The notes under the pieces were generated by a model that was given only the letters and a program-made list of their open reading frames with translations, ran no database searches and was not told the DNA's origin. 64,000 nt of DNA from assembly GCA_012295275.1 (NCBI GenBank), contig CM022665.1, positions 34,534,001 through 34,598,000 on the forward strand. Reading direction: 5' to 3'. Source of the DNA: Chrysomallon squamiferum. Its lineage: Eukaryota > Animalia > Mollusca. The translations under genes were made by a program, and so were the position numbers. Shown here one piece after another: positions 1-36,503 of this stretch (the stretch's first letter is position 1; each line of letters starts with the position of its first letter).

Positions 1-36
1 CATAACCTAATTATTTAATTAGCCTATAGTAATTAC

Positions 37-203
37 CTTTAGCTGCAGATAAAGCAGCTCTACGTTTACAAGTGCGACTAATTTCCTTTATTGGTTGACA
101 TTTAGTTTCATCTCCTCGTTTTAGCGTCAGCGTTCTCGTCATCATGTTGGTCAGAGGGTTACACTGACTCCATGGGGCACGTTGATATTTACATGCTGCA
201 AAG

Positions 204-236
<33 letters not shown>

Positions 237-830
237 AACAAAAAAACCCAGACAAAACAAATCCTTGATGATTCACAAAGTAAAATACATTAGGAAATAA
301 ATTTTATAATGATTACGATTTAATGGATAATTCATCTGGTTAAATGAGGAGATATAACAAAATAAAATATCATTTTTGATATTTATGGTCGTATGAATAC
401 TACAATTACGGTATTTGGGTGAATTTTGAAATCTTTTTAAATGTTTTTTTTTTTTTTTTTCTTTCGCCAAAATGATTACAGTATTATGTAACGTAATTCA
501 CGAAACATTTTCGATAATTTGTTTCCAATGTCTAAAGAAACAAAAATTGTTGTAACAAAACTTTACACGTTTCGTGTGCTTGGCAGAAAAGTCGTTTGCT
601 AGTCACTTAATGGGAATATTAATTACAAAATATATTATTTTTTTATAAAAAAAAAAAGAAAGTATTTTCACGAAATGTAGACGAATGGATAGAAAATGAA
701 TAAACTTCAAATTTAGATTCTCCCCCCCCAAAAAAAATAAAATAAAATAAGAAGAAAGTAAACAAAGAATAAAGAACAACAACAAAATTAAAAAAAAAGA
801 TATTAATAATAAAAATAAAATAAAATAAAA

Positions 831-873
<43 letters not shown>

Positions 874-3800
874 AATAAAAAGCAACAACAAACCAAACAC
901 TATTTCAGTATAAAAATAAGTACCTCCTTTTCCCCCTGATCTTTGTTTACATGTTTTTCTTATCGTCTTCACACTCCTACACTTCGATCTATCGCCATGT
1001 TTTAATGTCAATGTTCGGTTCATTGTATTTGTTTCTTTATCACATTCGCTCCATGGACCTCGTTGATATACACATGCTAGACATGAAAATTATATAAAAA
1101 TGTTATCTGTATTTTATTAATTTCTTTTGATATGCAAACACGTTTCAAGTTTCAACACAAATATATACAAGCAGGCACGCACGCACACACACACATACAC
1201 ACACACACACATATGTTAACATACATATACACACATGCATATACATACAGAAATACGTATAGACAGATAAATATGTATAGATAGATACATACAGATACAT
1301 AACAGACATACAGATAACCTAGAATGACATATAAAAATAACTCACCTTTGCCTCTTGTTCCTCGTCTGGCCTTGCATTTCTTTTCGATTGTTTTCTTACT
1401 CTGACACGAAGATGAACTTCCACGTATCAGAGTCAGTTCTCTTCTCATCTTGTTTGTAGACGTATCACATTCACTCCACGGTCCTCGCTCATACTTACAC
1501 CCTGAAAAACATTAATTCATTACTTTGCATTGTATACTGTTTAACGGCTATAAATACAATAGCTAATTAATTTATTTCAAGTGTACATAATTTAATATCT
1601 ATAAATATATGAATTAAATATTCTTAATAAATTATACCGAATTTAATAACAATAACAATAAATTAATTAATATATTTAAATTGGATATTTATAGCTTTTT
1701 TTTATATATATATTTCTTTAAATATAATTTATAAAGTAAAACGTTTTTAAAATTATTTTTACAATTACTGCGCATTTAATATTAAATTACCTCCGAAAAA
1801 AAAAAAAATCATTACAACAAGAAAAAGAAATATAAACATCCTATGCCCACAACCCCTGAGAAAGAAAGAAACTCCTCCCAGCACCCAAACCAAAACGCAA
1901 AAAAGAAGTGTCTCTTCTTCCGAATGTCAGCTTGCATTGTTTTGGTCGTGTAGTCTTTATTAAAAAAAAAAATCATTAGTTTTCTATTTTTATTTTATCG
2001 TAATTGACTGTAAATAAATATTTTTTACGCATACACATACTGTTTGTCTAACCTCAGTATCCGAATAAACGAAGTATCTCTGATAGTGCACATACTTTAT
2101 TATGTGCGATCATGTTTTGCCACTCCTATTCTTAGAAAAATCCCAGCGGAAGGTAATTCAGACAGTATACAAAATCTGTAATTGATGTTATTCAGCACGC
2201 CATATACTGATTAATATTTTAGAACTTTGAAAACTGCTTCAATTTTTGTTACCCTTTTTCTTGCACTTCCTCTCGATGATTTTGTCTACAGTTTTACACA
2301 GACTGGCATCTCCAGAAACTAACTGAAGTGAAATCGTTCTCTTGTTTGTTTCAGGGTCACATGGCGATTTAATTTTTTTGTATCGACAAACTGAAATAAA
2401 AACATACAGACAAAAAGAAAATTACTAATAAAGTATTGAGTTCGAAAACTGTATTTAAAATGACTAATTTTCTAATTGTATTAGCATATTTCATGGTTAT
2501 GAAGGAATATTAGTGATGTTACATCTAGGTTTTAGCCCTCTGCAATCTCCTTACGATGTCTCAAAATAACGCCTCCTCAGACAACAGTTAATAAATAAAT
2601 AAGTCATGCGACATCACATTTTTGTACAATGAAGTGTAACGGCCGAATTATGTGGACTCATCTGGAGACAAATGTGTTTTACAGCAAGGCTGAATTCTTA
2701 ATTCCACTCTTCTCTGTTCATATCAAAATCAGTAAACAACCATTTGCTATAGAAGTATCTTACACTGTTGCTTTTTTTTTTTTTAAATAATAAAATGAAA
2801 CTGAATAATTTATTTCGTAGTGGAAATGGACAGTTTATCACATTTTAACTTCCTCTGAAGCATGGATCTCACCGCTGTTTACCTTTCTTGCATTTCTTTG
2901 TCCTGACCGTTTTTGTCTTCTTGCATTTTTGTGGATCTCCAGAAACAAGCCGAAGAGAAACTGTCTGCGTGACTGTCTTGGGATCACAGGGCGATTTCTC
3001 TTTTCTATAACGACAAGCTGAAAGAAAATATACATCATAAACTATAACAAAATTTCAGTCACTTAAAGTTATAACAATATATAATATCAGTCTCTGAAAA
3101 ATATGCATTGTCTATAAAGATATGTTTATTTATTTATTCATTCATTTATTTATTTATTTATTATAATATTATTATTTTTATATTTTATTTATTTTTTATT
3201 TTTTTAAATATTTATTTTATTGTAAGATATAATTATATAAAAATTCATTCTCTGAATTTTTTTTTTTCTAACATCAGTTTCAAATAATATATAATTTTTT
3301 CCAACTTTTGAAAAAAAAGTATATATAAATTAATAACAATAATAATAGTAATAATAATAATCAGTTTTCAACTGTCTATACTGAAATTCGATACAAAATG
3401 GATATACAGTGGTACCTCGACTTACGAGTTTTTCGAGTTACGAGCAGTCACCCAGTCTATTTTTGGTTTGAGTTGCGAGCCAAAATCCGATATACGAGCT
3501 AGCTTCAGATATGCCGCCACTAGTTTGCGCAACGAACAACATAAAATCCGGCCAGGATCCCACGTCTCACTCGTTTACATCACGTGATTACCTCGCCACG
3601 GAACCATCTCTGTTGTGTTGTGTTCGCGATTTGTGCAATATTTTGCCAAATTTCTTTTTTTCTGACCATGGATTGTAAGAAAGTGAGTGCAAAGGACAGT
3701 GCTGAGAAGAAGAAGCGGATGGTGTCCATTGACTTAAAGTTTGAATTCATAGAAAAACATGAGCGAGGTATGCATACAGTCGACTTGGCTAGGCAGTACA

Positions 3801-4769
3801 AGCGTAGTACTTCAACAATATGTACCATATTGAAGCTGATGAGTCCATAAAGGCTGTAACTCCAGCCAAAGGCGTTAAAATAATTTGTCTGGTTTCCAAG
3901 ATAAATACACTTTACAAAACCAATTTATTTCTTTACATTCTCCTTTATTTTATTTTTATGCAATATTTGTCATTTACAAATACATTTTTTCTTATTTAAA
4001 AACACGTTACAAAAAAAAAAAAAAAAAAAAAAATGGGGTGGTTTTGTGGGGCTGGAACGGATTAATGGTATTTTAGTTCATTTCAGTTGGGAAGATTGAT
4101 TTAATATACAAGCAAATTGAATTACGAGCTCGGTAACGGAAGGAATTAAACTCGTAGGTCATGGTACCACAGTATAATACTTAATCTATTGGTAATGAGT
4201 TACCTTTTCGACAGTTCTTTTCTATAACTTTGTTAGCTTTCTTACACTTCTGTGGATCACCAGAAACTAGATGGAACGTGATTTTTTGTTTCTTTGTGTC
4301 AGGGTTACAAGCGGATTTCTCTTTTCTGTAACGACATGCTGAAAGAATATGTAATATTACTTGTGGGGAACCTGCGACTTAAAAAATGGCGGAGATACAA
4401 ATTACAAATAATCTTTTACAGTTCTTCCAACCAGCCATACTAATGAAATTACTTTTATATGCTGATACCTAATGTTATCAAGTCGCGGAATGTCCGTTAA
4501 AGCACCTCAGACACATCCCGATATACGTAAAACTATAGTGTGATCATTGATCGGAATGCGAACTAAGGTAAAAAGTAAACCGAGGAAAATTAACTTTATA
4601 GTTTATAGCATATCTCATGAGTTTCATACTAAAATGAGTTTCAAGTGTTAGAAGAAAGACGAATTATTATTGTTTTAATTTACATTTAACTATATTTCTA
4701 CAGATAGTAACAGACTTTGTAGAGAAAACACTGGAATATTTGCAAAATTAATATCGTTAACCATATATA

Positions 4770-4816
<47 letters not shown>

Positions 4817-5850
4817 TTAAGTTTTAATTTTAAAAGAGAAAGAAAGAAAAAATTCACTAGTATTGCCTTTCCGATGCTTAAAACAATTAACGTCAAGTCG
4901 TATTTTAAATTACTTTTGTAAGAGACATTCTGTCAGTGATTTTTGTTTTCGTCTTCAAGTTTGATGGAACACCCAGCTGCTGGAACACTAACTGTTTATG
5001 TTAACATGGTCTCTGGCATTTCATCAAAATATTCTTTTAAACATAAATGTCACTGCTAATTAAAACAATTAAAACTATATTATCTGCACCGAAACTGCAC
5101 CTGACTTAAAAATACTTGTTTTTTTTACTTTCAAATTACATATACTTCGTTGCAGATGTTTTTACATCCATTTAAGATCATTAATATTATTATAATATTT
5201 TTACTTTTTTTTTAAACGTGACATCCCAAGATTCAAAAAAAAAAAATAAAATAAAATAAAATAAAATTCTTGACCGTGCATAAAAAGAATTGATCTAATA
5301 AATGCAATGCACCTGCTAAAAGGAATGCACTTTATCTTACCTTTGCTTTTTTTGCATTTTCTTTGAATAACTTTATTGTCTTTTTTACATTTGGCCGGGT
5401 CTCCAGATACAAGCTGCAAAGTAATCGTTTGTTTCTTTGTCGCGGGGTCGCAGGAAGATTTATTTTTTCTATACCGACATTCTAAAAAGATCAAGGTTAA
5501 TTTTCATTAAAAAGTTATCAATTTATCATTGTATTGGTCAGACCAAAAAAAAAAAAAAAAAAAAAGTAATAATAATAATAATAACAACAATAATAAACAA
5601 ACACAATTATGAATTAAGTTTTCGAAATGTTCTTTACCTTTCTTGCAGTTCCTTTCTATAACTTTATTTGCTTTCTTACATCTTGTCGGATCACCAGAAA
5701 TCAGTTTAATTGTCACAGTGTGTTTGTTTGTCTCGGCATTGCAAGGAGATCTCTCTTTTTTGTATCGACATGCTGAAATACAACGTCATGAATGTTTAAC
5801 AATACTTCAGAAAATTTTAATATTAACGATTATCAGTTATTTATTTCGGT

Positions 5851-5901
<51 letters not shown>

Positions 5902-6148
5902 GAACTGATATGCAAAGTATTAACTAGTATGCCAGTCGCACGGGTTTTGCTTGATCTAGTGGTTAACTCTTTGAACACGTTGTTAGTATGTGAGCTGGGG
6001 TATAATTGTAGAGATAAAGACAAGTGGTTTATGATTACATTAAAATAGTTTATTAAAATTTACCTTTTGAACTGGCTCTGTTTTGATTCTTGCTTAACGA
6101 AGCTGGCAGGACGATAACAAGAACCATACATAACAATATCAATCTCAT
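37..6148 (-). CDS. Secreted multi-domain pleiotrophin/midkine (miple)-like protein, signal peptide plus >=8 tandem PTN/MK C-terminal-like modules; 3' end lies outside the window
   Basis: Manual join on minus strand: 6064-6148 (MRLILLCMVLVIVLPASLSKNQNRASSK, signal-peptide-like), 5638-5772, 5341-5481, 4204-4338, 2883-3017, 2253-2390, 1346-1501, 924-1076, 37-195. All junctions are GT-AG and phase 1, giving 412 open codons. Each module exon has 4 Cys, e.g. GCKYERGPWSECDTSTNKMRRELTLIRGSSSSCQSKKTIEKKCK, which resembles the PTN/MK C-domain pattern C-K-Y-x4-W-x-E-C-D-x2-T...R...L...C...C. Confidence 0.88.
3407..4172 (+). mobile_element. Non-autonomous Tigger/pogo DNA transposon, internally deleted, copy 1 (intronic)
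   Basis: Termini CAGTGGTACCTCGACTTACGAG ... CTCGTAGGTCATGGTACCACAG are flanked by TA on both sides. The internal ORF fragment MDCKKVSAKDSAEKKKRMVSIDLKFEFIEKHERGMHTVDLARQYKRSTSTICTILK resembles a CENP-B/Tigger N-terminal HTH. A homologous copy lies at 39657-40238. Confidence 0.88.
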
Positions 6149-6535
6149 TCTAAAATATAAACAAATGAATGAACGATAACTAAGGAAGTAAGTAGTTAAG
6201 TAAGTAAGTAAATACATAAACAAGAAATGAAAAACAATCTGCTAATATCAGTATCACAGTAATAAAAAGTATAAATACTGAATCAAAGTATTATTATGCA
6301 TGTACAAGAAAAGTGGGTGTGAACAAATTCTTTATTTGGTGGGTTAACGTGCACATATTATGTCCTCTCCTCTTCCTGAACGCTTCTTACAAGTGTAGAG
6401 ACAAAGAAAAAAAAAAAAAAAAACCATATCCATCACTACTTTTTCAAAACCTGTTATGTATTTATTGTAAGTTTTTTCTAATTTTAATTTTGTCAGGTTT
6501 TCGAAAAATACTCCACATTCTTGAAATTCCAAACA

Positions 6536-7219
6536 GCACATAGTCCAATATCTTTTAGGAACTGATGCTTTTGTAGAATGTTCTAGAGCTGCTCCTCTTA
6601 TATAAGCCTGTAAGTGCATAGGTCAGCTTAGCATTTCTCAGGTTGCACAGTGTATTAATCGAGAAACTGCTTACATTATTACGATTCATTTACTTACATT
6701 TGCGGATTCTACACATGCCCAAGGTAGGTAAAGCATGGAATCAAAGTATCTTCGAATTTTACACCAGCTTATTAATTATACTTAGGCATGAACATAATGG
6801 ATCAATGACTCCATACGTAGTTTGTGCTACATGACGATCGAATTTGGAGGGACAGGTGCCAGGTGATTGCTTGACAATGCCCAACGCCAAACACAGAATA
6901 TGGAAGGAACCACTTAATCATGTGTGGTGGATATTTAAAAATTCACGAAAACGAAGAATCGACATGATATCACAAATCCAGATATTCCATTATCTATCGC
7001 TACAGTTCCACATTGCTAAAGATTCGAATCTGAATCTGAAAAATCTTACGTTGGTCGTGCTGATGAAGAAAAGAACGACTACAGCAGGGACTGGATGATA
7101 TTATTCGAGATCTCGGGCTGAAACTTCTAACTCTTTGAACGCGTAAATAGTATCTGAGATGCGGTATAATTATTTGATAAATGAGTGTGTATATGTGTCA
7201 GTGTATGTATATATGATAG

Positions 7220-7258
<39 letters not shown>

Positions 7259-8480
7259 GCATACTGATGGGATGATATTAAATTACAGATGCTAGGAAAA
7301 GGGTCCCAAAATACGTTTCGGTGAAAGATAACTGAAGTTTCTCTGCTGACATTGAGAACTTGTTTCAAGAACTGGATACTGGTCATTAAGAATAATTATG
7401 ACTGACATCTCTCCAAAGAGACATGCTCCAGAAGTCTCAAATAAGCATTCATCAATACCTGTCGGGTAGTCTCTGGATGTAAAGGAAAAGGTGAAATGTC
7501 TTCTGGAAACTAGAGACTACAACAGGTACAAATGGCAGGTATGTGGCGATTTCAAAATGATTAGCTTGTTAAAAAGACGCCAAGGATGCTCTACACTGGC
7601 TTCAAAGAAAACAGTTTATTCCAGGCAAACAGAATGCGAAGTATCAACCCTTAGTAGAATCAGAGAAAATCCTTTTGCCTCCATTACATATAAAACTTGG
7701 GCTTGTCAAACAGAGTGTGAAAACAGTGAACAAAGAAGGCGAAACTTTCAAATATATTTTCAGCTTTTTCCCACATCTGTCAAAGCAAAAATCTAAAAAA
7801 GTATTTTCACTGTACCAGATGTTCACAAGATGCTCCAGTCACAAGAATTTAAAGAAACAATAACATCAGAAGAACGCAACGTTTAGTGGTTGCTAAATTC
7901 TTTGGGAGTAACAAAAGTGGGAATTACAAAGAATTAATAGAAATATTGATGAAGAAATGTATAAATTAATTGTCTCTGAAATTGCATTTTCTCCATTGTC
8001 TTCACCCCAAGTTTTGCGAAAGATGAGCAAGATATTTCAACTTTGGAAAGCCGAGGGAAATGGGACTGCAGTATGATGGGTGACTATCTGTGTGAGTGGG
8101 TAAGTGATGACTCATCATTTCATCGACGAAAAATACGAAAATCTGTCCTTTTGTAATTCGTAATCTTCATTGCTGGTTTCTATCTGTACAGCATTACAAA
8201 TATACAGAATATCTTTGTGATATTTGTTTTTATAAATGCTGTCAAAAAATTCACCGGTATGGTATAGTGTCTTTGAATCGAAAAATCTCATAAATTCGAA
8301 AAACATTTCCTAAAAATTGTGAAGGTGAAATTCTATAACTAAAACTAACACTCTAGAAGAAGTAGCGACACTTTTTTAATCAGCACGCTTTAATTAAACA
8401 CAATCAACACAAAAATTGACAAAACAAAGAATTTTTAAATATCTATCACATTGTTGTTTTCATTTATTTTGTAATATGTG
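6536..8480 (+). mobile_element. Decayed DNA transposon with transposase pseudogene, Chapaev3 (CMC)-like; boundaries approximate
   Basis: Collinear fragments interrupted by stops and frameshifts: TPYVVCAT*RSNLEG..MP..RIWKEPLNH (6800-6920), YNRYKWQVCGDFKMISLL (7518-7570), PPLHIKLGLVKQSVKTVNKEGETFKYIFSFFPHLS (7678-7785), DEQDISTLE..GKWDCSMMGDYL (8020-8090). The family assignment is from recalled motif similarity. Confidence 0.7.
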
Positions 8481-11711: not shown

Positions 11712-12290
11712 CAGGGTGTCCCAAAAGTAACCGAACCGCAAATTTAAATAAAATTAGATATTAAAAATAACAAATTTAATTCCATCTTTTATGTCATTTT
11801 ATGTTATCTTTTGTACTATTCATTTACTTCTGTCAGTAGTAGTATTTGGAATGATTTTTGTTACCTGATTGTAGTGTTCTTCGTGATCGAGACTTCTGTT
11901 TTAGCACGCGCTACTGGACTCTCCATGGTTTGACTTGAAATGGTACCCTCACTCTTAAAAATGCAGCGAAGAACTTTAGATTTAAACGAACGTATCTTCG
12001 TTATTAAGAATTACTATGCAATGACTAGCTACAAGCATGTTGAAGAAAGATGTGAAGTAAACTTTAGTAAATCGACAGTGTTCAATCTTGTATCCAAATT
12101 TGAAGTAACTGGAAGTGTGTCAAATGCTCCTAAAAAAGGTCGTCCAAAAACAGTTCGTTCACCTGAAAACAAGGATTTAGTGGCAGCTGCATTTGAACAT
12201 TTGTAAATACTAAATATACAGACTAAATTTGTTATTTTTAATATCTAATTTTATTCAAGTTTGCGGTTCGGTTACTTTTGGGACACCCTG
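11712..12290 (+). mobile_element. Non-autonomous Tc1/mariner element
   Basis: Near-perfect TIRs of about 67 bp (CAGGGTGTCCCAAAAGTAACCGAACCGCAAA... / ...TTTGCGGTTCGGTTACTTTTGGGACACCCTG) in TA-rich flanks. The internal fragment ERIFVIKNYY...SKSTVFNLVSKFEVTGSVSNAPKKGRPKTVRSPEN is a mariner/Tc1 HTH plus GRPK linker. Confidence 0.9.
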
Positions 12291-18350: not shown

Positions 18351-19026
18351 TCATTCCTGTATGGTATCATTCTTATTTTAATTACCAATATTTTTAAGAA
18401 GATAAAAATATTTCCAGACCAAGGGGAAGAACACAAGAAAACTAGTGTCAGCCGATTGGAATACGGATAAAGATCTTTGCAGATTAGAATTTTAATTATA
18501 AGAACAAAACTAAAATCTCTGTTTACTGTTCACTGTTGATTAGTTTCAGTACAGCATCAGTTAGTTCTTCTTATTATTACTATTAGTGTTACCTTTATCA
18601 TTATTTAATGGTTATTATTATTACTGTTGCTGTTGTTATTGTTGTTATCGACTTATTATTATTATTATTGTTGTTGTTGTTCTTATTATACTTATTGAAA
18701 TTGTTATTTATAATGATAATAATAATAATAATAAGTAATAGTAGTAGTAGTAGTAGTAACAATAGAAACAGTAGTAGCTTTAATAACTGTAGTGTTGTGG
18801 CAGAGGAAGATAAATCGTAGAAAACTGAACAAACAGAACAATAAACCATTCTCCTAATAATGGATTTCATAGTCGGAATATCAAGAGATTTTATCAAAAT
18901 CGTTAACATACATTTTATTACTTTCTGCTTTCTGGAACAGTCGACGAACCGTGTTGTTCTAACCTAACTTTCGTTTATTTTTATGCTAACGACGTTTTTA
19001 AAACTTGCAGAGTCAAAGTGGCGACG

Positions 19027-20670
19027 ATGAATCTGATAACAGGTCTAATCTGTTTATGCCTGGTAGCAGGTGTTCTCGGAAAGGCAGATCAACACAACAG
19101 ATTAAGGAAGGTATTGATGAATTGCACAAATTCATTGCGAGGTAAGTTTGATATCTTTGATGGACAAATAATGAGCTAGATGTATTAGAAAAATGTGTGT
19201 GTGTATATTTTGTTTTAAATAAAAATTATATACCTATAAAATATATATATATATATTTATTTAATAGTGATTGCATACTTTTTATTTAAAAAACCAATAA
19301 GCAATCGTGACTATTTGACTGAATGAACGAATGAAAGTAAGAACGAACGACTGGATCAAAGATATTTATTATATGGTCATTCCGTATCAAATTATCCTCA
19401 GAATTGTAAAACTTTTAACTCCAGCCCTTCAGATTTTGCTGTAATTTGGAAGTTTGTTCAGTATGGGTGGGAAATTTGAAATGCCAAATATTTCTTGTAC
19501 AGGATCAATTATTTAGGAAATAACACGCTTTTGCAATAAAATTAATTTACAATTGTAGCCAAAGATATTGGCTGTAACATATAAAATCCATGGGTGTAAT
19601 AAATATATATATTTTTAACAACTGTAATCAAAATAGGCACATCAGAAGACGAACGAGTGCTGCAAACAAATTAAACAAATAATGGGACTCTATCAAAAAA
19701 AAATTCAGTTAATTTCAGGGGCGGTCAAACTTTTTAAAACAGGGGCCGGATAGATCTTACAAGAAGAGCATGAGGGCCAGAATATGAAATGAGAACAAAA
19801 AAGATTTCAAAACGTATATTTTATGTAAACAGTAAATTCACAGTGAAAACCAGTTTTGATCGTGGCAGTTAGCGTGGTTCAGTTCGCCCGCATGTGTAAT
19901 TGACACAGGATTGAAATAATGATCGTTATAGTTTGCATATTTTGAAATAGTGAAGCAAGCAGCCATTCAGAATTCAGATTTGATTTGACAAGCACCTTTG
20001 AGATGCCTTAAATTTTAAACTTGAGTGCGACTTGAATAAAAAAATAGCTGTGTCAACTGACTTTATTTCATTGACTTTTAGTTTGCTGTCTCGCTAGCCG
20101 GATGGCAATGTTAACTGTGAACAATTTGGCGGGTCAGACAACAAATCTTTGCAGGCTGGAATTTGCCCGCCCGAGTTAGATGGATTGTTGAGAAACAAGG
20201 GTCTAAAGATGGGTTTTGTCACTCATTTTAGACCAAATACCCTAACTATGGAATGTTATGTTTTTGTTTTTTATCCTCGTCGGTATATAATAAAAGCCTC
20301 ACTAATGTTTTTAAGAAAACACTGACACTAAATTGGGAGACAGATACGATATTTAATCCATGTAAGTGTCTTACAGTGTAGTCCCAGTGTTTCTTTAAAA
20401 GCTATACGGGAAAGACTAAAACATAAATATTCCCATACAGACACCCACTAAACAAAATATATTTGAATCCAATAACGATATCATAGCTAACCTTAGAAAG
20501 TATTTACGTGACAGATATACATTTTCGTTTTTTAAATTATTGCGATCAATATTTATAATAAAATATTCAGTTCTGTTTATACATTCAATATACGCGTTTG
20601 CGTAGTTTTTTAATTTTTTAAATTATTAGTCTTTTTTTATATACATATGTGAATATATTAATATATATGA

Positions 20671-20720
<50 letters not shown>

Positions 20721-20810
20721 AATGTATGTATGATTAGGTAGAGAAAGCGATAGATGTAGAGGTAGGTATATTTAATATATCAGGTGATATTCTTAATGTT
20801 CCATTTCTTT

Positions 20811-20860
<50 letters not shown>

Positions 20861-23800
20861 TGTGTGTGTGTGTGTGTGATTCATTTAATTTCCAATTTCA
20901 CGCTCGGTAGACATATCAGTGTATAAATATTTTGTAGTAATTATTATTACTACTTACATTAGAAGTAGTATAGTAGTAGTAATACAGTTAGGGAATTTTC
21001 CTCTTTTTTTTTCTTCTTTTTTCTTCCCCTCCTCCCAAGTGACTATCTACATTATTGATATTAGTTTTCCTCCTACATTTTCTTTTTAATGTATAAAATA
21101 ATGTTGTGTGTTTCAGATGTATTAGAGCGGATAAAATCTGGTAAAAGAAAAACTGATAGTTATGCTGATCTAAAGTCAAAGGCTGGAGCGGAAGATTGGT
21201 TGGATAAAACCAATGAGCAGCTGAGAAAATTGTCTACAAAAAGCGCGGAAACAAACTGGAATTTGCAAACTAACGTGACTTCAGAAAATCAGAAAAAGGT
21301 AATGTTTAAAATGTAATGATGATGAGGAGAAGAGGAGCAGTTGGATTATTATGTTGACGATGATGATGATGGTGGTAGTAGTGGGAATTATGATAAAAAA
21401 GACAGAGATGATAATTTCAATAATAACGATATCTTTTTATTATTATTATAATAATTATATTCATTATGTTCCCATGCACTGCTTCCCTCTTCGGCCAGTG
21501 GATTATTAATCAAAGACAATGGTACGTATTCCGCTGTCTATGAAGTCTGTTTATAAAATAATTTTCAGCTGGTATTTGAATAAATTAATCGACTGCATGG
21601 TCTTTAACCATACAGATGAAACGATAAAACCACAAATCAAAAATGTCTCGAAAACGTAATTAACAGAATACTTTTTACCTTATTACGTAGGTTGCTGAGG
21701 TGGAGGTTGAAATGGCGAAGTTTTTAAACAAAATATTAGAAAAAGCTAAAGACATCGACCCTAACGTACTAGATGATAATTACAAACGACAGCTAAGATT
21801 ATTGACGTTGTACGGATCATCGCACAATCCTGAAGTAATCAAGTAAGTATTAATAATCTAACTGTTAGTAGTATGCTAATACTATTCGTATTAAACTATA
21901 ATTATTTATGATTGGTCTTATCATAATTACTACTGCTACTGTTGCTATTACTACTTCTTCTGCTGTTACATCTGCTATCAATACTACTACTACCACTGCT
22001 ACTACTGCTACCACATCACCACCACTGCTACCACATCACTACCACAACCACTGTTACTGCCATTGCTATTAGCATTACTAATTCTACGGCTACTGTTACT
22101 GCATCTACTACCACCATGTTACTACCACCATCACCATTACTCTGCTGTTACTACTACTGCAACCACTAGTATATATTGTATAGCTACCGTTACTACTACT
22201 TCTATAGCTGGTATTGATGCTTATATTATTACCACAACTAATGAAACAGACCCATATGTATATGTATGTGTGTGTATATATATATACACATATATATATG
22301 TATGTATATATATATATATACACACATATGTATATACACACATATATATATTATATATATATATATATATACACATATATATATATACACATATGTGTAT
22401 ATATATATGTATATACACACACATATATATATATGTATGTATATATATATATGTGTGTGTGTGTGTATATATACATATATATACATATTTATATATACAT
22501 ATACACACACACACACATACACATTTACAATACGAAGGTATGTACGTATATAATACAGAAAATATGTACATACATACAAACATACTTACAAACATGCATA
22601 CAGACAATACATACATGCATGCATACATAAACACACATACACACACACATACACACATATACACACATACACACATATATCCACACACACATGTATACAC
22701 ACACACACGCTTGTATACATACTATATTTTAACTGTAACCCATGAGCTATGAGGTATCCAAAATATAACAGACCAGCAACGTGGTTGGGTAACGTAAATT
22801 TTGTAATATATCTGATATCACTTACGTATGTATGTCTGTTAATTATTTCAGAGAAACCAGTCTTACAAGCAGTGAAATGATGGAAATTTTTGACTCTGCA
22901 AAAGTGTGTAGGGAAGGAAAACCAAAAAACTGTTTGTCTAAAGAACCTGACCTCTATAAAATCATGTCTGAAAGTAGGGACCCATCTGAACTTTTATGGG
23001 CATGGAAAGGATGGCGGGATGTCACTGGTTCAAAAATACGACCTCTGTACGAGAAATACATAAAACTACTTAACCAAGGCGCCGTGGAAAACAGTATGCT
23101 TTGTATTGCAATCTACTATTACTAGAATCATTAAACTTTCTTCTCTCTCTTCATTACTTATATTTTTCTTATAATCTTTCATATTGTAAGCAAACGGAAT
23201 ACTGCAGTAGAGTTAAGATATAATGTTTGTTCAAAATGTGATGCTAACATGCATGAAAGTCTCACAAATTGAATAAAATATCATTTAGCTTTAGAATCCC
23301 TTTACAATAATTATGTCAAATTATGCAAACGACAGTAATTATATATCAAATTATACTATTTACAATAATTACGTGTCCGATGTATTTAACGTTTGTTACT
23401 TTAAATCATCGATGCTAAATTATATTTTATGTATATGTATATATACTTATTGAATGCATCAAAATAAAAATGTTTTGTGTTAATGTACTAAGTGACAAAA
23501 TAAATGAGCTGTGATGTCATCTGCTGGCCGGAGATCTCTGTCAAGTTTTATTCTGTTCTTGGTGATCTAACTGATGGCAAACTGCATGTTAGTATTGTAT
23601 GTCGCAATTATACTGCAGTAACTTTTTAAAATAATATAGATTTTGCACAAATATCTTCTATTTTACTTGGAAGCGATTTCATTTTGTTCTTTCTTTTGTT
23701 TATTACAATTACAATTACTGTTACTATTATTATTATTATTATTATTATTATAAGATTTTAGTGATTACGGCGCCTTTTGGAGAGATATGTTATTTGACCA

Positions 23801-25241
23801 AACTCCAGATATAGAAGCAAAATGCGATCGTCTTTGGGAAGAAATCAAGCCAATATATGTTCAGCTACACGCATTTGTGCGTAAGAAGTTAACCGAGAAA
23901 TACGGCAAGAAGATTGTGGGCACCAGTGGAGCTATTCCTGCTCACATCCTAGGTAGGGCTGTTCTGCGTTATTTAATAATATCAAATGACAAATTAGTTA
24001 CCAATGAATAACACCAAATATACCATTCATATTATCTGCGGATGCTGTATACTGTGATGGAATGACTGAGTGAATGTTTTACAACATTTCTGTATATTTT
24101 AATGGTTACCAGATTTCAGTTATAGGTTATATATCAAATAATGACTCATATAATTAGCAAAAAGAAATCGTTCGTACATTTCTGTCCACAAACAGGAAAG
24201 CATGTACTACGACCTATGATAAATCAGCATGAGGGATTAGTTTGAAACTGGAAATTTATCAACATGGTATTGGAGAATTTCTAGAACATTTTTGTAACAA
24301 CAGCAGTAACAAAAATAACAGCAGTAGTAGCAACATCGTCAGGTTTTTATTGTTTTCTAAACATTAGTGCGAATTGCATTTTCAGCGGCAAAAGGCAAAA
24401 CAAAATCAACTGCTGTCTGCTGATATTGACGTTTCTTGTGCTAGATTTATTTATTTATTTATTTATTTTTTTAATAAAAAACACCTCCCTCGGCAAGTTT
24501 GTCTAAAGTCGTCGTATGTATTTTCTTCGATATAAAGGAGTGTTTATATTGTAGTAATTAATATCATATTGCTGATTTGTGCAGGTAATATGCATGCTCA
24601 AGAATGGAATAACATATTTGAAATCATAATACCCAAAACGAGCAAAAATCGTATGAAAAGCATAAAAGACCGTGAGAATAAAGAGTTGCAGAGAAAGTAC
24701 GACGTTAATGGATTATTTCGTCTCGCAGAGGAGTTTTTCTGTTCCATATCTTTATACAACATGACTGACATATTCTGGGGAAAGTCAATGTTGGTGAAAC
24801 CAAAAGACCGTGAAGTGCAATGTCATGCTTCAGCCCACGACATGTACAGAAAAAACGATTTCAGGTAAGAGATGATAACTGATGATGTCAGACCTCGACA
24901 TGTCACTCGGTATCCTTAATTGGGCTCAATTGCTGTCTGTTTCAGCCATCTTTGCATCACATACTCTTTCATCTGACACATTGTCTGTACGTCACCTGAA
25001 CGTAACTTTTTCATTCATGTACGTGTACGTCACTTTCGTTTTCATATGTCGATACGTTACTATTCCTCTGACTGTACTTCACTCTTCAATCTTTTATTCA
25101 TCTACGCCAGTCTTTCGTCCGTCTATAATAGAAAAAATGGTTTAAATGAATGTAGTTCGATTTTAATAGAAGAAAAAATTACTCTTTTATCTAAAATCAT
25201 GGTTAAATATTTTCTATTTAATTTTTCAAATTCTTCTTCTT

Positions 25242-25303
<62 letters not shown>

Positions 25304-25869
25304 TGTTATTGTTATTATTATTGTTGTTGTTGTTGTTGGTTTTTTGGGGGGTTTGTTGTTATTGTTATTGTTATTATTATTACTTTTTGTAAACAAAAAG
25401 AAAAAGTGACTAAAATGTGATTAACATTCTTTCCAAACGTGATATTTTATAAATGATTACAAATCACAGTGACAGTAATAAATGTATAAATATCCCATTT
25501 TATTTTTGTTTCTGTGATGTAGCAATTACGGGAAGCCATCTACTACAGACAGTATCTTTGCAATATAATTAGCACATTCATAAAGATAATAGCAATTACG
25601 AGAACCAAAATTTCTGTTAAATATTATTCCTTTGAAATGCAGTTAGAAATATTTGCTACCTCACAAGTGATTTATTATTATTATTATTATTTTATTTTTA
25701 TATATATATATTTTATTATTATTATTATTATTACTATTATTTTTTTTTTTATTATTTTTTTTTTTTTTGTTTGTTAAAGAAATCAAACATATATAACCTG
25801 CATTAAAGGAAATGTACGAAAACAAAAATAAAAAATATAAAATTAAATAAATACATACATAAATAAATA

Positions 25870-25919
<50 letters not shown>

Positions 25920-28900
25920 AAATCAGAGATACAGCTAATTTCAAGTCCTTTTTCTTTTTTGTTTTAAAACACACATTAGATTTATCTATGTATCTACCTA
26001 GCTATCTTTCTATTTATCTATTTATCTATTTTTTATTTATTTCTCCAGAATCAAGATGTGCACAGAAATAAATTTCGATTACTTAACTACGGTACACCAC
26101 GAGATGGGTCACGTGGAATACTTCATGGCGTATGCGAATCAACCGACGCTTTTTCGTGGTAGTCCTAACTCGGCCTTCCACGAGGCAGTCGGCGACACCA
26201 TAGATTTGTCTGTAATGAGTCTTAAACATCTGGAAATCTTGGGACTAATAGATGCTAACACCACAAACAACAATGGCAAGAAACATAATATAATTTATTT
26301 AGAATGTATCTATTGGTCTAGCTTCGCTCATACTGCATCGCTGAAACAGAAAAAAAAAAAAAATAATAATAATAATAATAATAAATAAATAAATAAATAA
26401 ATAAATAAACAAAAATAAATAAAAGTAAATAATATATATATATATATATATAACATATTAATAATAATAATAATAATAATAAAGTTTAAATAAGTAATCT
26501 GTAACTTACGTGAAAAATCGAAGTGAAATAGGTTAAAAAAAAAAAACCAAAACAACAACAAACAAAACAAATAACTGTGATGTATGTAATAAATCGTAAT
26601 AACGAAGCCGAAAAATCTCAAGAGCGTAGATGAAAAATCGCATTAACATACGTTAATTGCAGTCGGACTTAAATACGCAGAAAAAAAATGGCAGCAGTGC
26701 GCGTTACAGCTTTAGATCCTGCCTTTTGTGTTCAGTCAGTAAACGAGTTAGACTATCAACCATTCTCAAACGTACTGACATCTACTTGAGGATCAAACAC
26801 GTATTCCGCGGGCACATGGTTGCAGAGTCTTTGCTGCTCATGATATTGTTAGTGTTATGAAAAAGAAAATGTAGTAGTCTTCAGTGTACCCCACTGAGAA
26901 TTAAACCTCAGTTTAAAATATACAATACCTTATCCTTATTTTTCTACTGAAATGTTCAAAATCATTTCGTGGAATAGAATTTTCCTTATTATCCAATTAA
27001 CTAAGCCCAAACCGCAGTCTTATAATAATATTAATAAGGATTTTCACTGTTATTTTTCATAATGATTGTTATCGTCTCATTTTTGCTAATGTAAATCTGA
27101 ATTATTTCAACATTTTGCTTTACTTCACTTTATATGTTGATATTAAATATCAATGCGGTTTTCCTGTACTTGTTCATGTGTAGAAATACATATAATTCAC
27201 GTGTACATAATATTCATCTATTCTGGCTGTTTTCGTTACTGGTTTTCGCCCAAACTCATTAAAAAAAAACGTGTTAATCACAGAATAAAAATGTATCTCG
27301 AATTTCGCATTTTTACACTACAAGATCGTTTCATGAGACTCTGAACTCAAATTTTCGAAGTTCGTTGGCTGCAGTCAACACCGTCAGTCCAACAACGTAA
27401 AATCAACTTCTTTAGTTTTAGCAACATTTCCTTTAATTATTATTAATTAACATTTTATTTTTATTATTAATATATTTTTTTCTTCTTTGCATATCCATAA
27501 AACAACTTTATATGAGCCTTGGCGAATAGTATATATAACTGACTGATGCAATCGGTAAATGTTTGGATATATAATTTATTTATTTTATTACCTAGACAAA
27601 CTTTGATGTATTTGTACTTTGTCTAATTAGCAATTACTTCAGCAGGCATATTTTATAAAAATATAATGTTAGAAAGGAAATAACATAACGTAAAAATAGC
27701 CACTGTTAAGTTTTCTTTAAAATAAATGTATTTTGTTTATTTCCAGATGTCGTTATACTGACTTTACTCGAACAAGCGCTTTCAAAAATAGCTTTTCTTC
27801 CTTTTGGTTATCTTCTTGACAAATGGAGATGGAAAGTTTTCAGTGGAGAAATAGAAAGCAATGAATACAACAAACGATTCTGGGAAATGAGGTACAGCTC
27901 TATAGTGTTACACGTAATTAGTTTATCAAAAGCAGTGATTGGTTTTTCCCAAAACGAGAAGGTTGGGAAAAAAGATAAATAATAAATAAATAAATAAATG
28001 AAAAACAAATAAATAAATATAAAAAATTAAAAAAAAAATAAATATATATATATATTTAAAAAAAACATCCTGCTAAGTGCAGTGGGTTTCTGTTACATTT
28101 TCCTTTATAGTACTTAACCCGTGTATATGTCGGCATATAATCGTAGATTAAAAATGCATTGCTAAATCAAACATTCTACCTTTTCTTTTATTTTTAACGC
28201 AGGTTTGTGTGTTTGATAATGTCTGAAATTTTATATATTTTTTCTTTTTCATTTTATTTTATTTTATTTAAAAATAGTCTGAAATACCAAGGTTTAGTGG
28301 CTCCAGTTCTCCGATCGGAAAAAGATTTCGACCCAGGAGCTAAATTCCATGTACCGTCCAACTCTCCGTATATGATGTAAGAAAATGGCTATATTATAAT
28401 ATAAAATATGAATCAGCAGTAAGTAAAGCCGGTAACAGGAAACCAGTTATCGTTCTTTATTCCCCTAATATAGTTTATGAATGTGAATCGAATTTCTTGT
28501 TTCTGTTTTTTTTTTTTGGGGGGGGGGTTCACCTATTGCATTATTTATTAAATTATTTATTTCTAATAACAGAAAGACATCACAAAAACTGGGTATTTTT
28601 AGTATTATTGTGATGGTATTTTCTCTATCTGTCTGTGACCCTGTCTCGCTATCTCTTTCTGTATGTATCTCTCTCCTACCATAAATATTAATACATACTA
28701 CATTTTTCAGCTACTTCTTCAGTCACTTAGCACAGTTCCAGTTTTATGAAGCTTTGTGCAAAGTCAGCGGTCACACCGGTCCTCTTCATCTGTGTGATTT
28801 TTACAAATCTAAAGAAGCTGGAGCCAAGTTCAAGTGAGAGAAATAATAATAATAATAGGAGAAGTAGTATAATAGTAGTAGTAGGTAGTAGTGGTAATGG

Positions 28901-29756
28901 TGGTAATGATGATCTGATCGGTCACACTTGTAAAATAATAATAATAAAAAGAAAGCATAAGCAATATCGAATTATATGTTCGTATATTTAAATTATTTAA
29001 AGTAGAGGGAGAGAGTAAGAGGGCGGGAGAAGAAGCTAGTGAGAGAGAAAGAACCAGTTCCATCTAAACACGCTGATACTACATATAAATTTACTTTGAA
29101 TGTCATTGATTTATTTCCATGCAGTTTAACTGAAGGTGTTTTACATCTGTGGTCATTGGTAGGATACACACTAAATAGGATTCGCAGTTGTTTATTGGAG
29201 TGAATTAGGTGATGTCACGTTGTTGTATTAAATACCCTAATACAAAGTTGTTTATTCTAAGTCGATCTAAAAACACAGCGTTTTAATCTGAACAAATCCG
29301 GTTTAGAAACGCATGCGTACCTGCTTATAGCTATTCTTACTGAATAATTTATTATAATTCCGACCAGATATTATTATTATTATATTATTATTTTTTTATA
29401 ATTTCATGAATGAATATACAACCTTCAGAAGAATCACATTTAATAGTAATATGTAATTATGTAAAACATTTAATATTTATTACCGTTTGTCATTGTTTTT
29501 ATATCATTATGATCGTCATCGCCATCGTCATCATCATTTATTTATTTTATTTATTTTTCTTTCCTTTTTCAGAAAAATGTTGCAACTAGGTAGCAGTGTA
29601 CCGTGGCAACAGGCTTTGTTTCAGTTAACAGGATCTAGAGACATTTCTACAACAGCAATCAAAAAATATTTTGAGCCGCTAACAAAATGGCTATCCGAGC
29701 AGCTAAAAGGAGAAACTTTAGGATGGGACAAAGCAAAAATTAACTGGGAAGAATAA
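19027..29756 (+). CDS. ACE: Angiotensin-converting enzyme-like peptidyl-dipeptidase (M2 family), single domain, soluble and secreted, 648 aa
   Basis: Join 19027-19141, 21117-21298, 21691-21842, 22852-23093, 23755-23952, 24585-24864, 26049-26275, 27747-27891, 28278-28376, 28711-28833, 29573-29756 gives 1947 nt, in frame. Signal peptide [18 protein letters not shown]. Motifs [30 protein letters not shown] (zinc), [23 protein letters not shown] and YFEPLTKWL are present. No C-terminal TM segment. Confidence 0.95.
19716..20180. mobile_element. hAT-type MITE relic in ACE intron 2
   Basis: Begins CAGGGGCGGTCAAACTTTTT...GGGGCCGGAT and ends with GGCGGGTCAGAC...GCAGGCTGGAATTTGCCCGC subterminal motifs. 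The right TIR is eroded. Confidence 0.45.
22255..22720. repeat. Compound (TA)n/(CA)n/(TG)n microsatellite field, preceded by a (CTA/CCA)n tract at 21925-22200
   Basis: Read directly. It generates several spurious Y/I/H/C/V-rich ORFs. Confidence 0.9.
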
Positions 29757-29844
29757 ATAATGGGCATTAAAAGTTTATTGCCAGAAACAGTTTGATTATT
29801 GTTATTGTTGTTGTTAATGTTATTATTAATAATGTTGTCGAAGG

Positions 29845-33381: not shown

Positions 33382-36300
33382 AATAAATATAATAAAATTA
33401 AATAAATAAATAAAACTAATATCATGATGATTCTGTTCGTTTTGCTTCTTTTTTTTTGTTGTAATTTATCATTTCTCTCCAGTCACATTCATTTTCACTG
33501 AGTTAGAAGTTCACCAAACATGGATCCTTTACTTCAGTACAGAATGATTTAGCTAAAATATTCAAAATTTATTCACTGCACTCTTTAATGTAATGAACAA
33601 ACAAAAATGTATTAATATTATTTGTTATAGATGCCATATATAGCTGTGGTCCTGATATAAATATGCACTCATATTTTGGAAGTGTATCACAACTTAATAT
33701 TTATAAATTGAGAAATTATTTTGCATTGTACATGGCAATAGCATTAACATTAAAAACTACCAAAAAAACACACAAAAAAACAACAACAACAACAACAATT
33801 AAAATAAATCAACAGAATGAAATTTAAAAAAAATCAATTAAAGCTGAATTATCTTCTTTTTCTTTTTTTGGTGAATGTTTTTTTTTTTTTTTTTTTTTTA
33901 GGTTAGCATTATTTCATATTTAATCAAAATTGTGTATCCTTTGTTGTATTCAGTGTTGACAGATAATTGATTAAAACATAGTGTACACTTACAAATAATA
34001 TATACGATATATCTAAAAATGTATGTCCTAGTTCAGTATAACCCATATTCCTTCACTAACCTTGAATTTAAATTATACATTTATTATTATTCCTGAAAAA
34101 GAGAAATATGTTTTTTAATAACTATGTTTTTCTCTCTTTTCTTGACAGTCTTTGGTTCCCTATTCCGACCAAAGTGTTCCCAAGAATGCTGGATTTAACA
34201 TCTATGAAAGGGATTCTATCGATGAAGATCCACTAGAAGAATTTCAAGGGCATTATCCTGAACACATAGAGCAACAAGTTCAATTACATGTTCAGGATGA
34301 TCAAAATATCAGTGGTAGATTTTTTGCAAAACTTAGTAAAAAACAGGATACTCCCCTTCACGAACCTGGCACTGAGTTGCAGGACAAGAAACACGGTGAA
34401 CAACAGTCCGATTATCAGAAAGCCAAGAAACAGATCGTTATACCTGGCTATAGACAGCGAACTAAGAATCTCGATAGTGAATATACGATGAAGTATTTGA
34501 AAAAACTTGTTAGCGAAATACAGCAAAAAAAGGCCAGAACATTGCAGCGAATATCTAATGAAATACAAACTAAAACATCAGAGACATATTTGAAAAACGC
34601 ACCTAATCACACGTCACGTGCAAATCTGGGTAAACAAGATAGGAAACTGCAGAAAAAAAAGTCTAAAAAAGGTTTTGAAGATCGCATGGCAAGCTCTGTG
34701 ACCTCTGTTGGTAAAATCGATGATGAGACCCAAGAAAATTTTGATAATGATGATGAGTCAGACATTGAAATTAGACCTATAAAACGGCCTGAAATTAAAC
34801 ACCCTAAAGGTTCCCAAACTGATAAATTTGAAACACGTTATCTAGATAAGAATGATCTACGAAGTAAAAGGTCTCTTATATATTTGCATAAGCTAGCAAA
34901 AGAGAAAACATCCCAGATACTGTCAAAATCTGACATTAGAAAAAAAGAGAGAAGCAAAGACACTTACAACAGGTACAGTGCTGAGATTAAAGAGAAACTG
35001 AGAAGTTATTCAGTTTCAGACATCGAACTGCAACGTCAGATATCTGAAATGTACTTGCAAGAAATGTATAATGAACCCAAAGACAAAAAGTACCTGAAAA
35101 AACTGAGTAAAGGTCTGAAAAAACGGAAAGCAAAGAAGAGTGAAGAAAATGTAACTGTCAAACATCTGCAGGAAGCTGCCAGCCAACTTGGATCCAATGC
35201 AGAAAGGTACTTACAGGAATTTTATATTGAAGTATTGGAAGAAAGATTTCCCAAAGCATCTTGTAAATCTGATCGCCAACAGCAGAAAAAAACTAAAGAT
35301 GTGAATGACAATCAGCCGAAACATAAAAGTCAATTGCAAATCAATGTTGCAGACAGACACTTGCTGAAAATGATTGGAAGAGTTCAGAGCAAAAGGAGAT
35401 GTATGCCACTACCTTCTTTTAAAATAGTGACTTGGAAGATGTATAAAAAACAGCTAGGTGGTGATGGGCAGCAAGGTATTGTGATACAAGATAAGAAAAT
35501 AAAAGTAGCGGACAGCACACTGGTGGAAAAATTGTCTGGAAACAAACTGCACAGATCTGGAACAAAACAACAAAATGTTAATGATAATATGTCATTTAAG
35601 GAAATTCTTAACTTTTTTGAAAGTTTAAATTCAAATAGGCAGGATCGTAATTTCAAAACGAGCAACAAGACCAGAACTTCATATAAAAGAGCGAAGTTTT
35701 TACAACAATCGCAAACCAAAGAAACGGGAAATGTCAAGCAAGAACGGAAAAGAGAAGTTCGAAGCAAGAAAATAGACAGTAAACATGAAGAAAATGACAA
35801 ACAGGAAACAAAAAAACAAAAAAATCGGCACGATGTTGAGACTAACTCGCAGAATTCAAAATCGGAAACATGCTCCCAGGAAGGTCGTAATGAATTACAA
35901 AATACAAAATCAGATAAGAATCACTCAGAGTCTGTTGAATCGGAAAGGATTCAAGATCTGACTACAAAGTTAACTCTAGAAAAACAGTGTGGTGAAACGA
36001 AATCAGACAATAGCTTATCGGAAGTTAAACAAACTGAAAATGAACCCTTCATTTCTCAGAAAGATCAACAGCAAACTGAAGACAAGACTGAAAACAAAGA
36101 TGCACAAAGGTCTAAGACGAGAGAAGAAACCAAAGAACGAAGTAAGAAAACGGAAGACTTGAAAGAAGAAAGCTGTCATCAGGGAACTTTGAAAAAAGAT
36201 TCAAGAGGTCCACAAGATGGGAAAAGGAACGAAGAAAATGATCTGTTGTTATCTGATGCTGAAGGTCAGCACTACAAAATAGAAAAGTATGTAGAATATA

Positions 36301-36503
36301 CATCTGAGAATAAAACAGATAAATTCCGTCCAGAACGTGAGGGACGGCAAGATAAGAATGCAGATAATACGAAACATCAGCAGTTGAAAAAAGAAGATGA
36401 AGTGTTGCAAGACAATACAAGAAAACATGATGAGGAAATAGATAAGAAACAAATAGCATTCGAATTCTTGCAACACTCAGAATCAGAGGAAAGTCACAAA
36501 TAA
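31852..36503 (+). CDS. Uncharacterised K/E/Q/S-rich, probably disordered protein (~806 aa)
   Basis: A 2355-nt open exon 34149-36503 follows a pyrimidine tract and GACAG acceptor. Three upstream micro-exons join in frame with GT-AG sites: 31852-31873 (MSLSDKK), 32081-32106 (GNASEAMTR), 32403-32420 (PEAYTQ). No recognisable domain. The micro-exons are less certain than the large exon. Confidence 0.75.

Follow-up and report, generated by a model that had tools for sequence, protein, structure and literature searches.

A tandem array of midkine/pleiotrophin C-type modules in Chrysomallon squamiferum includes a five-exon tryptophan-less block

What kind of protein is encoded at the edge of a 64,000-nucleotide stretch of the Chrysomallon squamiferum genome (contig CM022665.1, positions 34,534,001 to 34,598,000; hereafter the window), where a minus-strand gene strings together modules resembling the C-terminal domain of pleiotrophin (PTN) and midkine (MK), and what might such a string do? 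The usual description of midkine and pleiotrophin is of small proteins with two domains, the fly Miple proteins being the invertebrate case. Judged by its sequence, the gene is a member of the midkine/pleiotrophin/Miple family, though not of the vertebrate two-domain type, and its first five modules form a distinct block that lacks a conserved tryptophan.

The nine exons proposed in an initial annotation, with their coordinates and counts, proved correct (Table 1). A signal-peptide exon is followed by eight module exons, each encoding a single four-cysteine module, carrying an AG acceptor two bases ahead of the first cysteine codon and ending in a phase-1 GT donor. All eight are phase 1/1 and 135–159 nt long (45–53 codons), every length being a multiple of three; this symmetry would allow modules to be added or skipped without breaking the frame. 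The introns measure 156–1186 nt. Joined, the nine exons give a 412-residue frame without a stop, with 113 Lys/Arg against 32 Asp/Glu and a pI of 10.2, in line with the secreted polycation that had been envisaged; the 15 Lys/Arg residues reported for one module are right for module 2 and are found in modules 4 and 6 alike. A strict four-cysteine pattern, derived from the window's own modules, matched eight times in bases 1–6200, nowhere in the other 57.8 kb of the window, and not at all in 30/30 triplet shuffles of bases 1–6200. The signal peptide, a hydrophobic N-terminal exon called by eye and by homology to the Gigantopelta protein described below, predicts secretion. Because an AG acceptor sits immediately before the signal-exon ATG and a TATA-like box lies at 6604–6597, a non-coding first exon is likely upstream of the ATG. 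Two RNA runs contained 0.16 and 0.15 of the stretch's words against an exon share of about 0.20, small shares that we do not count as evidence.

Table 1. Exons of the PTN/MK-family gene and a possible promoter element (window coordinates)
Feature	Position	Strand	Details
Signal-peptide exon	6064–6148	-	85 nt, ATG to phase-1 donor; 17/28 identity to XP_041351382 N-terminus, pairwise E 1e-10
Module 1 (Trp-less, Arg-less)	5638–5772	-	135 nt, phase 1/1; 76% to Gigantopelta module 1; no Pfam match
Module 2 (Trp-less)	5341–5481	-	141 nt, 15 K/R; PTN_MK_C 17.7 bits, under cut-off
Module 3 (Trp-less)	4204–4338	-	135 nt; weak VEGF_C match only, E 0.068
Module 4 (Trp-less)	2883–3017	-	135 nt, 15 K/R; three-stranded fold predicted
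Module 5 (Trp-less)	2253–2390	-	138 nt; PTN_MK_C 16.4 bits, under cut-off
Module 6 (canonical PTN/MK C-domain, Trp and Arg kept)	1346–1501	-	156 nt; PTN_MK_C 49.5 bits, E 5e-13
Module 7 (canonical PTN/MK C-domain)	924–1076	-	153 nt; PTN_MK_C 45.8 bits; 81% to Gigantopelta module 7
Module 8 (canonical PTN/MK C-domain) with basic linker	37–195	-	159 nt; PTN_MK_C 49.2 bits; 86% to Gigantopelta module 8
TATA-like box, possible promoter	6597–6604	-	About 450 bases upstream of ATG; sole pattern match in 6149–7200; a consensus match is no proof

The best protein match is XP_041351382.1 (LOC121370308) of Gigantopelta aegis, an uncharacterised protein of 552 residues and 11 modules. The window product is identical to it at 299/411 residues (73%) and collinear through every junction, with three small indels; the joining of the exons is therefore supported by collinearity with a database protein rather than by reads. 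Each window module finds its best or tied-best match in its positional Gigantopelta partner, except module 5, which scores 69% to Gigantopelta module 4 and 67% to Gigantopelta module 5. By alignment, the two are thus shown to be one-to-one orthologs, sharing a signal peptide, the order and subtype of modules 1–8, five Trp-less modules and the lack of an N-domain. They differ in that the Gigantopelta protein comes from another species and is a database annotation only, and that its last three modules correspond to a region outside the window. The alignment of the window product ends at residue 415 of 552, in agreement with the earlier view that the gene continues past the window edge; because the ortholog has 11 modules and the window eight, three further module exons likely lie there.

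Turning to family membership, the gene combines PTN_MK_C matches above cut-off, four cysteines with family spacing, a signal exon and a basic chain. Pfam PTN_MK_C (PF01091) scores modules 6–8 at 45.8–49.5 bits, above the curated cut-off of 25.3, and the whole Gigantopelta ortholog at 217.9 bits; modules 2 and 5 match weakly (17.7 and 16.4 bits), and the Pfam scan gave no PTN_MK_C match for modules 1, 3 and 4. The initial assignment of all modules to PTN/MK thus holds directly for modules 6–8, while modules 1–5, under the cut-off or unmatched, are placed in the family by profile and tree and, more tentatively, by a predicted fold. All eight modules have exactly four cysteines that align to the pleiotrophin C-domain, and the eight-module profile retrieved that domain (8voi, E 8e-4) as its sole PDB sequence match. 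Module 4 was modelled with three strands (pLDDT 82.9); Foldseek placed the pleiotrophin C-domain in its top row (TM 0.63), a match that was not significant, and VIA-align placed it second (rmsd 2.8, 43 aligned), with weak TSR structural rows also appearing. The whole Gigantopelta protein, folded without an alignment, reached a pLDDT of 42 with low-confidence, helical modules 1–5, and that model was dropped. MK/PTN domains belong to the TSR superfamily (available text of PMC3267162), but the window modules, with their four cysteines, match PTN_MK_C far better than they do any TSP1 model. The only TSP1-type hit is TSP1_CCN on module 8 (E 0.94, versus PTN_MK_C E 7e-13), and a TSP1 identity was dropped as a weak match, as were VEGF_C, Dickkopf_N and DUF6701. 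PTN_MK_N (PF05196) found no match in the Gigantopelta ortholog, and the window signal exon leads directly into module 1.

What distinguishes this gene is the block formed by modules 1–5. None has the tryptophan before the second cysteine, and Val or Ile replaces the canonical Arg twelve residues on; mapped by spacing and by the pleiotrophin alignment, the lost residues would correspond to W69 and R81 in the heparin site of midkine. Modules 6–8, in contrast, keep the Trp together with the R81 and K102 equivalents of midkine heparin cluster 1, though not K79. Across all family modules, Arg or Lys stands at the R81 place in 330/366 modules with Trp versus 13/67 without; with the window gene, Gigantopelta and the unnamed fragment P0062 excluded, Arg stands there in 246/357 versus 9/56, these being counts over related and so not independent modules. 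Trp–Arg stacking occurs in thrombospondin repeats and would explain the coupled loss of both residues. The block is also extra-basic, with net charges from first to last cysteine of +7, +9, +8, +10 and +5 in modules 1–5; for 413 other family modules the median is +4 and the 95th percentile +7.

How did the block arise? A tree built on 42 columns from 115 modules of the window and 16 chosen proteins, its bootstrap not settled, groups the ten Trp-less modules that the window gene and Gigantopelta hold between them in one clade (98/94), apart from the ten other Trp-less rows; at the DNA level modules 1–5 are 64–73% alike. The module count can be anchored because a conserved linker follows module 8: it stands after eight modules here, after three in Haliotis and Babylonia and after four in Nucella and Littorina, which points to five exons added by duplication. 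Within the limits of this tree, modules 1–5 are shown to descend from one ancestral exon copied before the Chrysomallon/Gigantopelta split, and the serial exon duplication proposed initially is borne out as their source. The five-copy block is specific to the window gene and Gigantopelta, plus P0062, as a lineage-specific variant. Trp-less modules as such are not unique to the window gene, an idea we rejected: 56 lie outside the window gene, Gigantopelta and P0062 (a few of them mis-parsed by the pattern), and unionid mussels made a separate Trp-less addition, giving equally long forms with five Trp-less modules.

Is so long an array exceptional? A search with the Gigantopelta ortholog returned 25 proteins of 303–966 residues, and a wider search without a word index, across 1.84 billion representatives, gave 235 matches, the best 150 of which were listed. 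In all, 171 proteins were collected, and modules were counted in 170 after removal of one false match (P0146, a 3750-residue SdrD-repeat protein). Four or more modules occur in 37/170 and eight or more in 8/170. Thirteen molluscan proteins, chosen because they are named and so not a census, have 5–12 modules, among them Haliotis and Littorina with 7, Nucella with 8, Mercenaria with 9, the unionids Potamilus and Sinanodonta with 11 and 12, and Octopus with 5. These molluscan proteins probably represent the same orthologous gene as that of the window. Annelid, brachiopod, nemertean, priapulid, echinoderm and hemichordate proteins have 4–7 modules, chelicerates 3 and flies 2. Thus the architecture is not the rarity it was first taken for: the multi-module state is common among the invertebrate matches, and the long architecture is, on these sequence counts, widespread and annotated in databases. 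The idea that 8–11 modules marked a record length was rejected in view of the 12 in Sinanodonta. That the array might belong to a widespread, described family, as the initial annotation had allowed, is true of its spread in databases; no paper describing the long forms was found in the literature searched, whose coverage is short on subscription journals, and a printed description may still exist. The PTN/MK family is not mentioned in the main text of the Gigantopelta paper (PMC7895826).

In most long forms the last module is of a distinct terminal type, whose 13 tree rows group at 100/100. Several also carry a PTN_MK_N domain ahead of the array: Lingula (N-domain plus five), Priapulus (plus five), Acanthaster (plus four) and one unnamed protein; Octopus has a six-cysteine stretch in the same place, without a Pfam match. 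A Patella protein with six modules is among the matches, and a 2005 paper reportedly concerns a cadmium-induced putative midkine-family protein in Patella caerulea. An indirect sign of gene structure comes from 42 short single-module matches, in which the third residue after the last cysteine is Gly in 23 and Arg in 3; at the third residue of the 88 three-residue linkers in spliced proteins, Ala occurs 46 times, Val 14, Pro 14 and Gly 3. The residues of the short matches are those expected when a phase-1 GT donor is read through, and one module per phase-1 exon looks to be the rule family-wide. A search of metagenome contigs found no related loci, so the exon boundaries of other species were deduced from such read-through fragments alone.

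The simplest reading of this unrooted comparison is an ancestor with an N-domain, several C-domains and the terminal module. A fuller scenario, which we regard as doubtful, would have this long form trimmed in vertebrates and insects, with the Trp-less type, marked by the aliphatic pair in place of the Trp–Arg heparin site, derived repeatedly among invertebrates; in the lineage of Gigantopelta-like vent snails, five copies of it would make up an extra-basic block that took on a new task, for instance the binding or control of bacteria on surfaces, with growth-factor function staying in the C-terminal half.

Several observations on individual long forms stand apart from this argument. Some bear misleading names, including 'nucleolar protein 58' in the annotation table for Gigantopelta, '58-like' in Octopus (P0019) and 'spondin-1-like' in Patiria, which may hide them in published proteomes. 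Paralvinella palmiformis has at least three multi-module paralogs (P0053, P0036 and P0099), P0053 having seven modules. Two abalone proteins named 'neogenin-like', P0074 (Haliotis rubra XP_046583259) and P0182 (H. asinina XP_067675169), join three PTN/MK C-modules to a fibronectin-III chain, a fusion that we know of from no described protein.

Comparison with characterised relatives bears on what the protein may do. Vertebrate midkine and pleiotrophin (PF05196 plus PF01091; PDB 8voi, 2lut and 2n6f) are, like the window product, secreted and basic with a four-cysteine C-domain, and the Trp and Arg of their heparin cluster 1 are kept in window modules 6–8. They have, however, one N-domain with three disulfides and one C-domain, ten cysteines in all, whereas the window gene has no N-domain and at least eight (likely 11) C-type modules, five of them without the Trp and Arg. 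According to the available text of PMC3267162, the heparin sites of midkine lie in its C-domain, which promotes neurites by itself, the N-domain is needed for dimerisation, and a linker serves as a hinge. Drosophila Miple1 and Miple2 are likewise secreted and basic, with repeated MK/PTN motifs and incompletely conserved heparin residues, and fly-type matches consist, as here, of C-type modules only; they have two modules rather than eleven and no distinct terminal module of the molluscan kind. In the available portion of PMC4224452, both Miple proteins show heparin binding in vitro despite incomplete conservation of the key residues, and both are dispensable for development; knock-down of miple2 led to poorer wing regeneration (bioRxiv 2024.04.17.589898, available text). 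The long invertebrate proteins share with the window gene the tandem C-type modules and the common terminal module but lack the five-copy Trp-less block, their own Trp-less modules falling elsewhere in the tree.

From these comparisons we favour, at a probability of roughly 65%, a secreted module chain that would bind sulfated glycosaminoglycans multivalently and act as a matrix-held growth and repair factor. The product would be a string of about eleven small two-disulfide modules, each exon predicted to fold alone as a three-stranded, thrombospondin-like domain. Modules 6–8, with the Trp and two of three basic cluster-1 positions, would give family-type binding, and modules 1–5 would raise avidity by means of their spread-out positive charge, forming bridges between proteoglycan chains or cells. 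Such a many-point grip on glycosaminoglycans in the extracellular matrix could tether the protein there as a growth or repair factor. Several points weigh against this proposal. The function is carried over from two-domain relatives, and the N-domain by which midkine dimerises is absent. The Trp69 and Arg81 equivalents are missing from modules 1–5, and the Lys79 equivalent from 7/8 modules. The junctions rest on homology, not reads. The fold match of module 4 is not significant alone (Foldseek E 1.8; VIA-align Z 3.8, tied with an unrelated chain at 4.3), and the alignment behind that model consists mostly of canonical modules.

Published tissue lists from the two vent snails bear on the other explanations. 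In Gigantopelta, ctg237-5.13-1, the sole PTN/MK-annotated gene and taken to be LOC121370308, appears only in the annotation and best-hit tables among 10 supplementary files, and not in the gland list or the metaproteome (PMC7895826). Its Chrysomallon best match occurs once in 13 supplementary files, in the low-complexity protein table (PMC7142155 Supplementary Data 3), and in no scale-, mantle-, gland- or gill-enriched list of that study, the lists being thresholded at fold change above 2, FDR below 0.05 (n=5). Because the orthologs are missing from these enriched lists, both a scaffold role and a role in the symbiont-bearing gland are weakened.

Possibly, the protein is an antimicrobial polycation on epithelia or in mucus, the five added modules raising its charge for bacterial surfaces, which might be useful among dense vent bacteria. 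Modules 1–5 do carry net charges of +5 to +10 against the family median of +4, and the annelid Paralvinella, also a vent animal, has a 7-module form with 142 Lys/Arg versus 7 Asp/Glu. Chicken and human pleiotrophin are antibacterial (available text of PMC9363672). We nevertheless consider this explanation unlikely: the orthologs are not in the enriched lists of the symbiont-bearing oesophageal gland of either snail, nor in the Chrysomallon gill list or the Gigantopelta metaproteome table, and the unionids, freshwater mussels with equally long forms and five Trp-less modules, indicate that neither length nor subtype needs a vent explanation. High salt, moreover, weakens killing by cationic agents.

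The array could instead be a precursor, cut at basic linkers into midkine-sized pieces, so that it would release several ligands rather than act as a multivalent binder. The linkers are rich in paired Lys/Arg, and that after module 8 starts with three basic residues, a feature kept in Gigantopelta, Haliotis, Babylonia, Nucella and Littorina; smaller Miple2 bands in the fly study were called 'potentially degraded or processed' (available portion of PMC4224452). Basic linkers are, however, expected in any heparin binder, and many linkers across the family are just three residues long (88 cases). A basic run directly after a predicted disulfide-bonded cysteine would hinder a protease, and the conserved linker could just as well act as a hinge like that of midkine; together these points leave cleavage improbable. 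In the window this linker (positions 37–70) has its three basic residues followed by a small-residue stretch, a candidate hinge or cleavage site.

Least convincing is the biomineral or scaffold role raised initially, a structural protein cross-linking acidic polymers in shell, scale, mucus or adhesive, which we judge very improbable: the product is repetitive, basic, Cys-rich and predicted secreted, its ortholog stands in the low-complexity table and pleiotrophin is present in the calcified eggshell layer with no role shown in the available text (PMC9363672), but the tissue lists lend no support, long forms occur in shell-less or unrelated animals (Octopus, Priapulus and Tubulanus), and the word pleiotrophin was not found in the shell-matrix papers retrieved, a weak negative given the loose term matching.

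Elsewhere in the window, a multi-exon angiotensin-converting-enzyme-like gene lies at about 18900–29800 on the plus strand, its three tested exons all matching Peptidase_M2 above cut-off, and a minus-strand exon at 58980–59261 has a HYLS1 C-terminal domain (64.2 bits). Two charged, low-complexity open frames on the plus strand (34146–36503 and 47179–50148; 785 and 989 residues) have no Pfam match; the second contains tandem 10-residue repeats, and both are possibly large exons of one gene. Fragments resembling degraded transposases lie at 7292–7863 and 11934–12206, a weak helix-turn-helix match (DUF4817, E 6e-4) being found for the second only.

With its ortholog already in RefSeq, the gene itself is an ordinary one, and the data show no new mechanism; the long architecture is already annotated in databases and apparently little described, and what is particular here is the five-exon, Trp-less, extra-basic block. 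Modules that have lost Trp and Arg together make up a subtype with poor Pfam scores and wrong labels in annotation. The long forms offer a natural series for how valency sets glycosaminoglycan binding and receptor clustering. With many invertebrates bearing forms of 4–12 modules, several of them with an N-domain in front, the small forms may be the derived ones.

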